From an uncultured Bacteroidales bacterium (GTDB lineage: Bacteria > Bacillota_I > Bacilli_A > ML615J-28 > CAG-698): a DNA stretch of 62,397 nucleotides. The translations under genes and the position numbers were made by a program. Where the stretch lies: positions 1 to 62,397 of the forward strand of contig CAYPLR010000005.1 in NCBI GenBank assembly GCA_964411675.1, in the 5' to 3' direction. Positions 5,068 through 61,523 of the stretch are shown here, piece after piece. The notes under the pieces are model-generated. The model made no database searches, was not told the origin of the DNA, and saw nothing but the letters and a program-made list of their open reading frames with translations. Each line of letters opens with the position of its first letter. The stretch's first letter is position 1.

Positions 5068-5141
5068 GCTCCTATAGTTTAATGGCAAAATAAAGCAATG
5101 GTAATGCTTAGATCCAAGTTCGATTCTCGGTAGGAGCACCA
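5068..5141 (+). tRNA. tRNA-Thr(GGT)
   Basis: Cloverleaf: acceptor GCTCCTA/TAGGAGC, D-loop with GG, anticodon stem AAGCA/TGCTT with loop ATGGTAA, T-loop TTCGATT, encoded CCA end; G1-C72/C2-G71 Thr identity pairs. Confidence 0.95.
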
Positions 5142-20164: not shown

Positions 20165-21886
20165 ATGGTTAAAAGTTTTATTAAGTATTATCGTCCTCAT
20201 ATAAAACTATTTATATTGGACATGGTTTGTGCACTAACAATATCTTTGATAGATTTACTATTTCCCATGGTTACTAGTAAAGTACTTAGGGAATATATTC
20301 CTAACGGAGCAATACGAACAATCGTTATAGTGGGAGTAGTCTTACTTGTTTTTTATGGAATCCGCTTCTTGTTATCCTATGTAATAGGATATTATGGGCA
20401 CATCATGGGAATAGGATTAGAAACGGATATGCGAACAGATTTGTTTAAAAAGTTTCAAACAATGGACTATCAGTTTTTTGATGATAAGAAAACAGGAGAA
20501 CTGATGACCAATTTAACAACGCATCTGCATGATGTGTCAGAGATGAGCCATCACGCACCAGAAGATTTATTTATTTCTTTTTTGATGCTAGTAGGAAGTT
20601 TTATTTATTTGATGTTTGTAAATGCATACTTAACAATGATTATATTTATTTTCTTATCCTTTCTTATTATTTATTCTATTTCTAGACGTAAAAAAATGAT
20701 GAAAGGCTTTCAAAATGCTAGAAATGCTCAAGGAGAGTTAAACGCAGAAGTAGAAAGTAGCATCAGTGGAATCCGATTAACAAAAGCATTTCATAATGAA
20801 GATTATGAAGAGAAAAAATTCGAAAAAATAAATACGTTATATAAGTCAGCACGAACAGAAACATTTCGCCAAATTGGTTTGTTCGGTTCAGGAAATGATT
20901 TTTTTATTAATCTAGCAAATTTAGCGTTACTTGTTTTTGGAGGATTTTTCGTCTATAAAAAATGGATTGATTATATTGATCTAACGACGTATTTCTTGTA
21001 TGTTAACTTCTTAATTAAACCTATTTCGAGATTAACAAATTCTATGGAGCAATTACAACAAGGATTTTCAGGAATAGAAAAGTTCTATAACATCATGAAT
21101 ATAAATCCTAAAATTGTAAGTTCTGAAAAAGGTATTGAGAAAAAAGATTTCATTGGTAATGTAGATTTTGTTGATGTGAAATTTAGTTATAATCAAAATG
21201 AGGATCAGTATGTATTATCTAATTTTACTCTAAGTATACCAGCTGGTAGAAAAGTAGCATTAGTAGGTGAAACAGGGGTTGGCAAGACAACAATATCGAA
21301 ATTAATTCCTCGTTTCTATGATGTTGAAGAAGGACAAGTAAAAGTTGATGGAATTGATGTTCGTGACTATAATCTATATAATCTTCGAGAAGCGATAGGT
21401 CACGTTCAACAGGATGTTTTCATTTTCTATGGAACCATTAAAGAAAATATCCTCTATGGTAAACCAGAAGCAACCATGGAAGAAGTAATAGAAGCGGCTA
21501 AGAATGCAAGAATTCATGATTTCATTATGACGCTTGAACAAGGGTATGATACCCTTACAGGAGAAAGAGGAATTAGGCTATCGGGTGGTCAACAACAGCG
21601 AATTGCAATTGCTAGACTCTTCCTAAAGAATCCTAAGATTCTAATTTTAGACGAAGCAACTTCTTCATTAGATAATATTACCGAAACCTTGATTCAAAAA
21701 TCATTTGATGATTTAGCGAAGGGAAAAACAACAATTGTAATAGCTCATCGCTTGACAACAATAAGAAATGCAGATGAAATTATAGTAATTGGTAAAAATG
21801 GAATATTGGAACGTGGAAAACACGAGGAATTAATGAATAATAATGGCTATTATTCCTCTTTGTATCATTCAAGTATTACAATATAA
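20165..21886 (+). CDS. ABC exporter, fused permease/ATPase
   Basis: N-terminal TM domain; GETGVGKT, LSGGQQQR, ILDEATS, AHR. Confidence 0.92.
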   Translation: MVKSFIKYYRPHIKLFILDMVCALTISLIDLLFPMVTSKVLREYIPNGAIRTIVIVGVVLLVFYGIRFLLSYVIGYYGHIMGIGLETDMRTDLFKKFQTMDYQFFDDKKTGELMTNLTTHLHDVSEMSHHAPEDLFISFLMLVGSFIYLMFVNAYLTMIIFIFLSFLIIYSISRRKKMMKGFQNARNAQGELNAEVESSISGIRLTKAFHNEDYEEKKFEKINTLYKSARTETFRQIGLFGSGNDFFINLANLALLVFGGFFVYKKWIDYIDLTTYFLYVNFLIKPISRLTNSMEQLQQGFSGIEKFYNIMNINPKIVSSEKGIEKKDFIGNVDFVDVKFSYNQNEDQYVLSNFTLSIPAGRKVALVGETGVGKTTISKLIPRFYDVEEGQVKVDGIDVRDYNLYNLREAIGHVQQDVFIFYGTIKENILYGKPEATMEEVIEAAKNARIHDFIMTLEQGYDTLTGERGIRLSGGQQQRIAIARLFLKNPKILILDEATSSLDNITETLIQKSFDDLAKGKTTIVIAHRLTTIRNADEIIVIGKNGILERGKHEELMNNNGYYSSLYHSSITI

Positions 21887-21893
21887 TAAGATT

Positions 21894-21925
21894 CGTGATG
21901 TTGTATTAGACATCACGCTTTTTTT
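21894..21925 (+). terminator. Intrinsic terminator
   Basis: CGTGATGT-8 nt-ACATCACG then CTTTTTTT. Confidence 0.8.
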
Positions 21926-21959
21926 ATTGTGATAGTGAAACGTTTTCACAAAAAAAGTT

Positions 21960-21987
21960 TTGACATGTACTGAGATAATGATATAAT
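21960..21987 (+). promoter_or_regulatory. Consensus sigma-A promoter of the amino-acid ABC importer operon
   Basis: TTGACA-16 nt-TATAAT with extended -10 TG; predicted TSS near 21994. Confidence 0.85.
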
Positions 21988-22004
21988 GATTGCATACAAA
22001 AAAA

Positions 22005-22085
22005 CGGGTTGAATTTAAAAGATAAAAGAAAAGATTTCTTTTTGAGCATAAATTTAAATTGAACCTATGTTTAATAGGTTTTTTT
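22005..22085 (+). promoter_or_regulatory. Leader attenuator unit 1 (antiterminator arm + conserved core + terminator)
   Basis: Core TTTAAAAGAT-[AAAAGAAA/AGA/TTTCTTTT]-TGAGCAT; terminator AACCTAT/ATAGGTT plus T-run; GGGTT 22006-10 pairs with AACCT 22062-66. Confidence 0.7.
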
Positions 22086-22094
22086 GTTACTAAT

Positions 22095-22181
22095 CCAGGA
22101 TGAATTTTATTTAAAAGATGAGAGAAAAGAATTCTCTTTGAGTATAGGTAAAAAATTTCAATCCTGAGATAGGATTTTTTT
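22095..22181 (+). promoter_or_regulatory. Leader attenuator unit 2
   Basis: Core TTTAAAAGAT-[GAGAGAA/AAGAA/TTCTCTT]-TGAGTAT; terminator AATCCT/AGGATT plus T-run; CAGGAT 22096-101 pairs with ATCCTG 22161-66. Confidence 0.7.
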
Positions 22182-22189
22182 ATTTTTAT

Positions 22190-22291
22190 CCAGGTTATTT
22201 TGTTTAAAAGATAGAAGTGATTCTTGAGCATAGTCTTAAAATACCTCTTGAGTATAAAGCAAAAAGCACCTGGTAAGGTACTTTTTATTTT
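22190..22291 (+). promoter_or_regulatory. Leader attenuator unit 3
   Basis: Core TTTAAAAGAT-[AGAA/GTGA/TTCT]-TGAGCAT plus a second TGAGTAT; terminator-like AAAAAGCACCT/AGGTACTTTTT (one C-A mismatch); CCAGGT 22190-95 pairs with ACCTGG 22268-73. Confidence 0.6.
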
Positions 22292-22305
22292 ACAGGAGGT
22301 TTTTT

Positions 22306-22353
22306 ATGCGGCGGAAGAACTCAAACACAAAAAACAGATTTGTAATCGGATAA
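22306..22353 (+). CDS. Putative leader peptide MRRKNSNTKNRFVIG (15 aa)
   Basis: Perfect AGGAGG SD at 22294-99, 6 nt before ATG; codons 2-3 are CGG CGG; not in ORF track; translation unproven. Confidence 0.45.
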   Translation: MRRKNSNTKNRFVIG

Positions 22354-22407
22354 GCCCTATATTAGGTGACAATGAAAGAAAACAAAATTAAAAAGAGGAG
22401 AAGAAAA

Positions 22408-23226
22408 ATGAAAAAAATTATTTGTTTTATATTATTAGTGATTAGTGTATTTGGATTAGCAGGATGTAAAAAGAATGTACTTAGTGAAATAACAAAAAAA
22501 GGTGAAATCGTAATCGTTACTTCACCAGACTATCCAGCATTTGAATTTATCGATGAGTCAAAAGAAGGACAAGATAAATATGTGGGTGCAGATATAGAAT
22601 TTATGAAATATATCGCTAAGGAATTGGGTGTAACATTAAAAATAGAAGCTACAGATTTTGATACAACATTAGCATTAGTATCAACAGGAGCTGCTGATTT
22701 AGCAATTTCAGGATTTACTTATAAACCCGAAAGAGCAGAAAACTATGAGCTATCTGATCCATATTATCAAGAAGGAACTCAAGGTATTATTATACTAAAG
22801 AGCGATTATGATAAGAATCAATACAACACATTAGCTAAATTAAATGTTGCTGGTGTAAAAGTTGGTGGACAAAGTGGATCATTACAATTTGACTATATTA
22901 CAAATCAACTACAAAACGCTACTGCAGAAGCATTTGCAAAAATTGCTGATGGATTACTATTACTTGACAATGGTACAATCAAAGCAGTTGCATTAGCATC
23001 AAGTGTTGCTGAAAATGTAATAGCCCAACAACCAGATAAATATGTATTCCTAGAAGAAACATTTACCGTTCCAACAGAAGAAACACAGTTGTTTGTTTTA
23101 GTAGCCAAAGGACAAACCGAATTAATCGAAAAGATTAATGAAATCATCGCAAAGATGATTGCTGAAGAAAAATATGAAATTTGGTTCCAAGAAGCAACTG
23201 ATTTAGCTGCAAGCTTAACTGAGTAA
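22408..23226 (+). CDS. Polar amino-acid ABC transporter substrate-binding lipoprotein
   Basis: Lipobox GLAGC, SPDYPAFEF, GADIE, DLAISGFTYKPER; start set to ATG 22408 behind GAGGAG (ORF track begins 22366). Confidence 0.9.
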   Translation: MKKIICFILLVISVFGLAGCKKNVLSEITKKGEIVIVTSPDYPAFEFIDESKEGQDKYVGADIEFMKYIAKELGVTLKIEATDFDTTLALVSTGAADLAISGFTYKPERAENYELSDPYYQEGTQGIIILKSDYDKNQYNTLAKLNVAGVKVGGQSGSLQFDYITNQLQNATAEAFAKIADGLLLLDNGTIKAVALASSVAENVIAQQPDKYVFLEETFTVPTEETQLFVLVAKGQTELIEKINEIIAKMIAEEKYEIWFQEATDLAASLTE

Positions 23227-23235
23227 AAATAAAAG

Positions 23236-23886
23236 ATGTTTGAAAACTTATACAAAATACTGATTAAATATTTTCCGTTATTTATGGAGGGGATGGGCGT
23301 TACCCTTCTCCTTTCTTTAATAACAGTGGTCTTTGGAACGATCCTAGGAACAATCTTTGCTTTGATGAGATTATCAAAAAGCAAAATACTAAATGTTATC
23401 TCCGAAATATATACGGAAATTGTAAGAGGAGTTCCCTTGTTGTTACAATTATGGGTAATTTATTTGTTGTTTAGTTCTACGCTTGGTAAAGTAGTAGCAG
23501 TGTGCTTAGCGCTGTTGTTAAATTCAGCAGCCTATGTTGCAGAAATTATTAGGTCGGGAATTCAAGCAGTAGATAAAGGTCAGGTGGAAGCTTCTAGAAG
23601 TTTGGGAATTAATGCCAATAAAACAATGATAAAAATAGTTCTTCCTCAAGCAATTAAGAATATCTTACCAGCATTGGGAAATGAATTTGTCACAGTAATA
23701 AAAGAAACTTCATTATCTTCAGTATTCTACATTGGAGATTTAATGACAGCCAAAACAATTATTACAACACAAACCTATTTAGCAATTGAACCTTACATTA
23801 TCATAGGAATTATCTATTTCATCTTAACGTATACGCTATCAAAAGTGATTGGTAAGTTTGAAAAGAGGTTGAAACTAAGTGATTAA
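23236..23886 (+). CDS. Polar amino-acid ABC transporter permease
   Basis: [37 protein letters not shown] (EAA motif), [14 protein letters not shown]. Confidence 0.93.
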
Positions 23887-24748
23887 AGTAAAGAATTTAC
23901 AGAAAAAATTTGGCTCTTTAGAAGTTTTAAAGGGAATAGATGAAACAATTGCAAAAGGTGAAGTAGTATCTGTTATAGGTCCTAGTGGTAGTGGTAAGTC
24001 AACATTTTTAAGATGTTTAAATTTGTTAGAAATTCCTACCAAAGGAACAATTGAATTTGATGGAGAAATCATTTATAAGAAAGAATCTTCGCGATACAAA
24101 AAAGCAGTTGATGCTATTAAAGCAAAGAAAAAAGAAATGAATTCTCAGGAATACAAAGAAAAATACGAGGCAGCTGTTTTAGAATATAAAGAGCATCAAA
24201 GCCTTGAAAAGGCACGACTAAAAAAATTAGATAAAACCATTAATGTTCATCGTCAAAAAATGGGAATGGTTTTCCAACATTTTAATGTTTTTCCTCATCT
24301 AAATGTATTAGAAAATATTACTTTAGCACCGATATTAACTAACAAAATGACGAAAGATGAAGCTGAAAAAGTAGCAAAAGATTTGTTGGAAAAGGTTGGC
24401 CTTAAAGATAAGGTGTATGAATATCCTAAAAAACTTAGTGGTGGTCAAAAACAACGTTTAGCCATTGCTAGAGCTCTTGCCATGAATCCTAAAGTTATGT
24501 TGTTTGATGAGCCAACAAGTGCTCTTGATCCGGAAATGGTAAAAGAAGTTTTGGATATCATTAAACAAGTTGTTAAAATGGGAATGACTGTTGTGATAGT
24601 AACCCACGAAATGGGATTTGCAAAAGAAATAAGTGATCGAGTTTTCTTTATGGACGATGGAAAAATTGTTGAAAAAGGAACCCCAAAAGAAGTTTTTGAG
24701 AATCCACAACATCCAAGAACAAAAGAATTCTTAAGTAAAGTGTTATAA
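23879..24748 (+). CDS. Polar amino-acid ABC transporter ATPase (GlnQ/ArtR-like) with ~45-aa insertion
   Basis: [44 protein letters not shown]. Confidence 0.93.
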
Positions 24749-61403: not shown

Positions 61404-61439
61404 ATACGAAAAAGAGATTGAAATAATCTTGCTTTGTAT

Positions 61440-61504
61440 GTCTTAGTACCTATTTTTTGGTTAGGTGTAGAAACGATTGAACCATATTATCAATCATATA
61501 AGAC
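61440..61504 (-). ncRNA. Purine (guanine) riboswitch aptamer
   Basis: GUCUUA UAU GAUUGAU AAUAUGG UUCAAUC GUUUCUAC ACCUAA CCAAAAA AUAGGU AC UAAGAC; C at position 74 indicates guanine; GACAUAC/GUAUGUC antiterminator present. Confidence 0.95.
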
Positions 61505-61514
61505 TTTTTTATGT

Positions 61515-61523
61515 ATTATATCA
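61515..61523 (-). promoter_or_regulatory. Extended -10 promoter of riboswitch-guaBA
   Basis: TGA-TATAAT on minus strand about 10 nt upstream of aptamer P1; -35 weak. Confidence 0.6.

Follow-up and report, generated by a model that had tools for sequence, protein, structure and literature searches.

To our knowledge there is no natural riboswitch for arginine or for most other amino acids, and arginine is sensed at the RNA level only via T-boxes. Serial attenuation is known from the Bacillus pyr operon, in which three PyrR-controlled attenuators each have a terminator, an antiterminator and a conserved purine-rich protein-binding loop, and in which PyrR stabilises an anti-antiterminator and so switches expression off. 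Other regulators have RNA targets of different kinds: dual hexaloop hairpins for ANTAR, a 29-nt element for RAT (CAT-PRD) and 9-11 spaced GAG-UAG triplets for TRAP/HutP. Tandem riboswitches have also been described, including triple ones, with the c-di-GMP-I, glycine, FMN and SAM-I classes among them, as has an ON/ON gate composed of T-box(Leu) and a ppGpp riboswitch (PMC9481103).

The leader analysed here, in a 62,397-nt stretch of contig CAYPLR010000005.1 (the window), resembles tandem riboswitches in that two to three complete sensor and terminator units stand serially in one 5' UTR, from which a pseudo-cooperative, more digital response is expected, but the sensor domain of the motif belongs to no described class. 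With the pyr attenuators it shares the number of three in one operon, the conserved purine-rich loop and a terminator and antiterminator in each; it differs in that the PyrR binding consensus is unrelated to the motif, its conserved loop is part of the antiterminator and its three units follow one another within a single leader. The hairpin loops are variable and have no conserved bases, and no triplet array occurs in the units, so that the features of ANTAR, RAT, TRAP and HutP targets are absent. General hallmarks of riboswitches are present, namely covarying helices, invariant junction nucleotides and an antiterminator that encloses the core and overlaps the terminator 5' arm as an expression platform. 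In Rfam 15 no family matched the leader at gathering score, the best matches at E<=10 having 12-21 bits (E >= 1.9), far below the gathering scores, and the literature searched, including large motif surveys, yielded neither an arginine riboswitch nor a matching motif. By this measure the element is a previously undescribed motif, a new class among terminator/antiterminator riboregulators.

The leader of ~410 nt has a perfect extended -10 sigma-70 promoter, located 3' of the terminator of an upstream MsbA-like ABC gene and kept in position in orthologous leaders, and holds three units, each closing with a hairpin and a U tract (Table 1). The operon that follows encodes a polar amino-acid ABC importer, with an SBP_bac_3 lipoprotein, a permease and an ATPase. 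The window SBP has its nearest solved homologues in 4i62, 4ymx, 4h5f/4h5g, 6svf and 4prs, all of which we take to be arginine-binding proteins. Together with the Arg T-boxes found on orthologues and the short uORFs with tandem Arg codons (both below), this indicates that the operon is most likely an arginine importer induced under arginine limitation. The ATPase (289 aa) is matched by ABC_tran models in two stretches and is ~22 residues longer than its 267-aa orthologue in locus L011, suggesting an insertion in its N-terminal half. The flanking genes differ among lineages, with MsbA-like ABC, DUF951 or MscS genes upstream and VWA or Big_2 proteins downstream, and no linked candidate regulator gene was seen at the loci examined. 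In L004 (2326-3000) the upstream MsbA-like ABC gene is deleted, with just its 3' end remaining. Across the whole window the only Rfam 15 matches are a purine riboswitch aptamer (64 bits, 61424-61523, minus strand) and a tRNA-Thr(GGU) gene (5068-5141, plus strand).

Table 1. Features of the three-unit leader and of the operon behind it (positions are those of the window).
Feature	Position	Strand	Basis
Leader promoter TTGACA, 16 nt, TG-TATAAT	21960..21987	+	12/12 consensus, extended -10
Unit 1 antiterminator 5' strand: GGGUU 22006-22010, AAUUUAAA 22012-22019	22006..22019	+	nascent fold
Unit 1 whole core	22017-22049	+	sequence
Unit 1 5' core AAAAGAU, AAGAU part invariant	22017-22023	+	sequence, alignment
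Unit 1 variable hairpin P2, loop AGA	22024-22042; 8-bp stem 22024-22031/22035-22042	+	fold, covariation
Unit 1 3' core UGAGCAU	22043-22049	+	sequence, alignment
Unit 1 intrinsic terminator GAACCUAU/AUAGGUUU + U tract	22061..22085	+	
Unit 2 antiterminator 5' strand, CAGGAU with AUCCUG 22161-22166	22096..22113	+	nascent fold
Unit 2 whole core: AAAAGAU + hairpin + UGAGUAU	22113-22145	+	sequence, fold
Unit 2 5' core AAAAGAT	22113-22119	+	sequence
Unit 2 hairpin, loop AAGAA	7-bp stem 22120-22126/22132-22138	+	G.U at stem base
Unit 2 3' core TGAGTAT	22139-22145	+	sequence
Unit 2 intrinsic terminator AAUCCUG/UAGGAUU + U tract	22160..22181	+	
Unit 3 antiterminator 5' strands	22190..22205	+	nascent fold
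Unit 3 core through first 3' half (nested alternative)	22206-22231	+	sequence
Unit 3 5' core AAAAGAT	22206-22212	+	sequence
Unit 3 short hairpin, loop GUGA	4-bp stem 22213-22216/22221-22224	+	sequence
Unit 3 first 3' half TGAGCAT	22225-22231	+	sequence
Unit 3 long-range P2' 3' strand UACCUCU + second 3' half UGAGUAU	22242..22255	+	
Unit 3 extra TGAGTAT (second 3' half)	22249-22255	+	sequence
Unit 3 intrinsic terminator AAAAAG.ACCU/AGGU.CUUUUU + U-rich tail	22261..22291	+	
SD AGGAGG + short uORF ATG CGG CGG (MRRKNSNTKNRFVIG*)	22294..22353	+	
Regulated operon, polar amino-acid ABC importer	22408..24748	+	domain matches
SBP_bac_3 lipoprotein gene	22408-23226	+	
Permease gene	23236-23886	+	
ATPase gene	23879-24748	+	

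The preliminary description of this DNA had reported three units of the form AAAAGAT-hairpin-TGAGYAT, and all of the positions that it gave for them match the window sequence. The compensatory change that it noted is also real, with A-U (22026/22040) as the third stem pair of unit 1 and G-C (22122/22136) as that of unit 2, and the basal pair changes from A-U in unit 1 to a G.U (22120/22138) in unit 2 that is workable on the plus strand only. The composite pattern AAAAGATN{8,30}TGAGYAT has three matches in the window, all in the leader and all on the plus strand, compared with a mean of 0.17 and a maximum of 1 in shuffled sequence. Neither half-site is enriched in the window on its own (TGAGYAT, 18 observed against 17.4 expected; TTAAAAGAT, 3 against 4.8). 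The non-random feature of the window is the combination and clustering of the half-sites.

Homologues of the SBP were gathered and their contigs read for leader units. In orthologue leaders at 92, 88, 83, 80 and 58% SBP identity three units are found in the same order; one or two units are kept at 54, 43 and ~38-41% identity, and the core is also present before SBPs merely 27-28% identical to the window protein. The consensus of the core, as found in leaders of SBP_bac_3 amino-acid ABC transporter genes, is MMAAGAUA-[P2]-UUGAGYAUA, and it is borne by many lineages of uncultured Bacilli, Acholeplasma/Anaeroplasma-like and others. In an alignment of 28 units, AAGAU and UGAG are invariant, and pairing is complete (100%) at the first four positions of the hairpin stem, each of which shows compensatory changes. 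The final alignment has 54 matches representing 47 distinct units, of which all 47 have AAGAU and UGA and 46 have the G that follows; the two bases preceding AAGAU are never G or U. P2 is 100% paired in this alignment with 58 double-sided changes, and its covariation score is 0.70 against 0.25 in shuffles, none of 500 shuffles scoring as high and the score collapsing when the partners are slid. Over these 47 distinct units, which come from distant lineages, nothing in the element but the two loop strands is thus invariant; the hairpin varies freely in length and in the sequence of its loop (loops of 2 to ~30 nt).

A 20-nt tandem duplication lies within the unit 2 hairpin of L001-L006 (~2688-2735) and a 13-nt insertion within the unit 1 hairpin of L017 (2102-2142), and that both are tolerated shows that the tip of the hairpin is unconstrained. 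Indels that are not multiples of three, together with the G.U pairs, exclude a coding role on both strands and show that the element acts as plus-strand RNA. Two coding readings were considered and rejected: a minus-strand ORF at 21869-22231, since orthologue hairpins carry the 13- and 20-nt indels, and a possible UUG-started ORF in unit 1, on account of the hairpin indels and the immediate stops of unit 2. The AGA triplets in the window's hairpin loops, which had been offered as possible Arg codons, are not conserved (orthologous loops are UA, UUAAU, GAAA and similar) and are attributable to chance.

These data bear on the possibility that the units sense nothing, being the product of recent neutral duplication, operators at the DNA level (ARG boxes) or simple attenuators that act constitutively. 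A TGAAT upstream in units 1 and 2 is faintly like an ARG half-site, and the lack of enrichment of the single half-sites in the window also counts in favour of such a reading. The units are nevertheless conserved orthologously across lineages whose SBPs share as little as ~28% identity, with an invariant core, compensatory changes in the stems and strand-specific G.U pairs, and each unit pairs with its own terminator. We therefore regard this reading as largely refuted and give it next to no weight; neutral duplication had been tied in the preliminary description to a core that homologous leaders do not conserve, and they do conserve it. The ARG-box operator was rejected separately, because TGAAT is found only in units 1 and 2 of the window's lineage and is absent elsewhere.

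When the transcript of each window unit is folded only up to the terminator loop, as a nascent RNA, all three units show a duplex between the sequence immediately upstream of the core and the 5' arm of the terminator, namely GGGUU/AACCU in unit 1, CAGGAU/AUCCUG in unit 2 and CCAGGU/ACCUGG in unit 3. In unit 1 the 5' strand pairs with 22053-22066, which the terminator 5' arm overlaps, and the duplex has -11.1 kcal/mol against -3.1 in shuffles (z -4.7); in unit 2 the z is -4.8, with none of 200 shuffles as good. Unit 3 has CCAGGU (22190-22195) paired with ACCUGG (22268-22273) and the helix P1 formed by UUUUGUUU (22198-22205) and AAGCAAAA (22257-22264). We compared the 28 nt upstream of AAGAU with the terminator 5' arm in 34 units from 19 loci, with shuffle controls: the mean z was -2.4 and 20 of the 34 units fell within the best 5% of shuffles, those failing being mostly last units with more elaborate platforms from other lineages. 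These predicted folds show each unit as a long AU-rich antiterminator helix, the 3' strand of which is in part also the 5' arm of an intrinsic terminator. The pairing of the upstream segment with the terminator arm means that the conserved loop caps the antiterminator, and whatever stabilises this cap would favour read-through. Having invariant strands, a covarying hairpin and this position, the loop is the obvious candidate for an effector-binding site.

L020 (975-1100) and, past their second unit, L077/L206, L099, L129, L158 and L202 have a conserved extra hairpin, AUAGUAUCA ... UUAUUGAUACGU, and their last units allow several mutually exclusive GUAUC/GAUAC pairings before the final terminator. 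By prediction these last units are a more elaborate expression platform or a three-way junction.

The closest relation of the motif is to T-boxes. RF00230 matches of 110-137 bits precede the orthologous SBP gene in 10 loci, from Holdemania, Merdibacter, [Eubacterium] hominis, Turicibacter, Acholeplasmataceae and others. In the three displayed alignments to the model, CGC (Arg) stands at the specifier, and when read by eye in L022, L030, L036 and L065 it is CGC or CGU, being CGU (Arg) in L036. In Merdibacter and Erysipelotrichaceae the T-boxes before this gene themselves stand in tandem pairs (L028 1977-2428, L036 797-1248, L038 1908-2358). An Arg T-box follows one motif unit, which has a terminator of its own, in L021/L164 and L037/L204, a heterologous tandem with a T-box, like the T-box(Leu) and ppGpp gate. 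Motif and T-box thus share the gene, the position, tandem occurrence, a GA-type motif at the base of a helix and the output, an antiterminator stabilised against an intrinsic terminator by an effector (which for the motif is proposed here). They differ in size (~50-70 nt against ~210 nt), and the motif is without the specifier loop, distal platform, stem II/III and T-box sequence and contains nothing able to read the tRNA 3' end.

The substitution of the motif for Arg T-boxes at the same gene could be explained if it were a miniature tRNA-Arg sensor, T-box-derived or analogous, in which the AGA of AAGAU is read by the anticodon of tRNA-Arg(UCU). An Arg codon is indeed invariant in the core, whose flanks, CAAGA...CUUGAG, look like the base of T-box stem I. 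Yet the same invariant pentamer also holds the overlapping codons AAG and GAU, the AGA is followed by U and not by a conserved purine, and the unconserved hairpin loops leave no elbow platform. There is also no T-box sequence to read the acceptor end: the UGG of the UGGN bulge of the T-box antiterminator was sought in the units and is absent. RF00230 has no match in 21850-22450 even at E<=10, and none in the window at gathering score. We consider this explanation very improbable. The CAAG/CUUG pairing that would correspond to the stem I base was rejected on two grounds: it would disrupt the basal pairs of P2, which covary, and the AAAAG units of the window lack it.

Our best reading is that the leader is an effector-stabilised ON transcription-attenuation switch, three in series, whose preferred effector is a small molecule such as an alarmone-type starvation signal; we put its probability at roughly 0.45. 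A trans-acting effector would dock at the invariant purine-rich loop (tandem G.A plus U.U, K-turn-like) and lock the antiterminator, so that RNA polymerase reads through, and in its absence the terminator would win. With three serial units the read-through probabilities would multiply, giving a tight OFF state and a steep, near-digital response. The signal would be something that rises under arginine or amino-acid limitation, as should be expected for a probable arginine importer whose orthologues are driven by Arg T-boxes; because the motif replaces or adjoins T-boxes, it must be compatible with uncharged tRNA-Arg, that is, with starvation. A small molecule would parallel the ON/ON tandems of T-box and ppGpp riboswitch. 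That the effector is of this kind is a guess as to effector class, to which we would give slightly less than even odds. Among the points against the best reading, an ON ligand is not obvious for an uptake system that relatives switch on by starvation, and the conserved core is very small (~15 nt).

The opposite polarity is also conceivable. Arginine, or a TRAP-like arginine-loaded protein, might bind single-stranded AAGAUA/UUGAG and melt or block the antiterminator when arginine is plentiful. The logic of such an OFF switch matches that of the orthologues' Arg T-boxes, which are expressed only under starvation, and the nascent RNA on its own, with no factor, folds by default into the antiterminator. 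The conserved strands, on the other hand, lie in a loop closed by covarying helices rather than in a helix that needs melting, inspection showed no conserved alternative pairing of these strands with the terminator arms, and TRAP/HutP-type triplet repeats are lacking. An OFF switch is for us improbable.

To search more widely, a covariance model (R1) was built from the 28-unit alignment and metagenomes were scanned with ACAAGATARN{6,30}YTTGAGYATAG, a narrow pattern that is biased to one sequence variant. The model recovers only motif units in 481 kb (the window and genome loci) and likewise in 745 kb of scan matches. Among the at least 120 stretches listed by the scan, ~100 are chance matches by the model and inspection, mostly in coding DNA, and 11 true units were found among the matches listed (L099, L129, L135, L158, L164, L202, L204, L205, L206). 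Wherever the gene downstream of a true unit could be read, it encodes an SBP_bac_3 lipoprotein; the remaining units are on truncated contigs, and in this small sample no second gene class was seen behind the motif among the matches listed. L135 (reverse strand, 868-924 and downstream) has an HTH-type gene inserted after unit 1, in place of unit 2, and is a disrupted copy.

The preliminary description had likened the loop to a kink-turn, with GAU opposite UGA forming tandem sheared G.A pairs and a U.U inside a 7x7 internal loop. At the sequence level GA opposite GA with the U.U is present in 47 of 47 units, but the loop is not always 7x7: the 3' side is often longer or has an extra hairpin. The invariant G after the second GA (46/47), with helix P2 beyond the U.U, is compatible with a K-turn sequence. 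A C able to close the C-helix as C-G occurs in 25 of the 47 distinct units, while all three window units have A.G. Among the units of the 28-unit alignment, 14 have a C before AA-GAU that is able to pair with the invariant G, leaving a 2-nt bulge; ACAAGAU units would have a bulge of 2 nt, and a 3-nt bulge arises only with GCAAAGAU. The proximal helix UUUAC/GUAUA, 51% paired in that alignment, was omitted from the model. In comparison with the kink-turn/GA motif of box C/D RNAs and of T-box, S-box and L-box leaders, the loop therefore has the same GA/GA, U.U, regular helix and G after the second GA, but a bulge mostly of 2 rather than 3 nt, an A.G rather than a C-G closing pair in the window and a C-helix just 51% paired. 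The K-turn of known riboswitches serves as an architectural elbow, whereas in the present motif nothing else would be conserved. Judged by its sequence it is plausible that the loop is a K-turn; we describe it as GA-motif platform-like and do not file it as a K-turn.

If the loop is such a platform, the effector could be a protein, either of the L7Ae family (YbxF/YlxQ type) or arginine-responsive, that binds it and stabilises the antiterminator. The agreement of GA/GA, U.U and the invariant following G with K-turn sequence rules and the 25 units with a closing C are consistent with this, as are the narrow regulon of a single operon type (among the matches listed) and the precedent of the pyr operon, where one protein serves repeated attenuators. 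A further indication comes from the base before AAGAU, which is A in the window (22018, 22114 and 22207) and in all units of L001, L003 and L017-L019; outside the window's lineage it is C (ACAAGAU), or the units are of the GCAAAGAU type. The three orthologous units of L011 and of L007 all have C, which implies three parallel C-to-A changes in one lineage, and a co-evolving macromolecular partner would seem to account for these better than a fixed small molecule. Against a protein stand the lack of a linked candidate regulator gene beside flanks that differ between lineages, the weakly paired C-helix, a bulge of 2 nt in most units where 3 is canonical, and the apparently small genomes of these organisms, with few regulators, as inferred from taxon names. 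We consider protein-dependent antitermination rather unlikely.

Unit 3 is nested. As the preliminary description had proposed, it offers two alternative 3' partners: its 5' strand AGAAGUG can pair with the UACCUCU (22242-22248) that precedes the second UGAGUAU, and P1 has AAAAGAU beside its 5' strand and the second UGAGUAU beside its 3' strand. In all seven loci tested (the window, L017, L018, L019, L007, L011 and L205) the helix of the second copy with the 5' strand is of equal or greater length, and the sequence changes among them preserve pairing; wherever a lineage has this second copy, P1 adjoins it and not the first. Directly 3' of the third terminator are a strong SD and a uORF of 15 codons (22306-22353) that begins with tandem CGG, a rare codon in this AT-rich DNA. 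Similar RR-containing uORFs are found in L011, L017, L019, L029, L045, L062 and L202, and one T-box-type leader, L025, also has one (MESDRRI*), so that uORFs with tandem Arg codons recur 3' of the last terminator in motif-type leaders and in one T-box-type leader. The RR uORF is a separate recurrent layer of the leader and may be a ribosome-stalling arginine sensor that adds further control. It lies downstream of all three terminators and no conserved ORF occurs inside the units, which does not fit leader-peptide (ribosome-mediated) attenuation. Around the terminator hairpin, 22243-22250 (ACCUCUUG) pairs with 22293-22300 (uORF CAGGAGGU) at -23.3 kcal/mol (z -3.8). The CCUCUUG segment is in this way a predicted anti-SD for the uORF, and the SD would be freed only when the segment is engaged in the motif, so that unit 3 may couple read-through to uORF translation. 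Sequestration of the SD of the SBP gene by the uORF region was also looked for, and no significant structure was found (z +0.8).

Returning to the effector-stabilised ON switch, we tentatively propose, at odds of well under even, that the motif is a new class of riboswitch. It would be a junction of two or three helices, ~50 nt long, with invariant AAGAU/UGAGYAUA strands that bind a small-molecule signal of arginine or amino-acid starvation, an alarmone or an arginine-pathway metabolite being candidates, and in one branch of wall-less or reduced Bacilli it would have taken the place of Arg T-boxes. If so, this would be the first RNA sensor of arginine status that works without tRNA. A compact element has taken over the job of an Arg T-box at the same gene, in two or three copies and sometimes beside a T-box. 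Should the effector be a small molecule, this would mean a new riboswitch class together with a new signalling metabolite in poorly known uncultured Bacilli; should it be a protein, a new K-turn-based antitermination system. In either case the element is small, modular and, as proposed here, ON-acting, so that it is easily tested and might serve as a genetic part.
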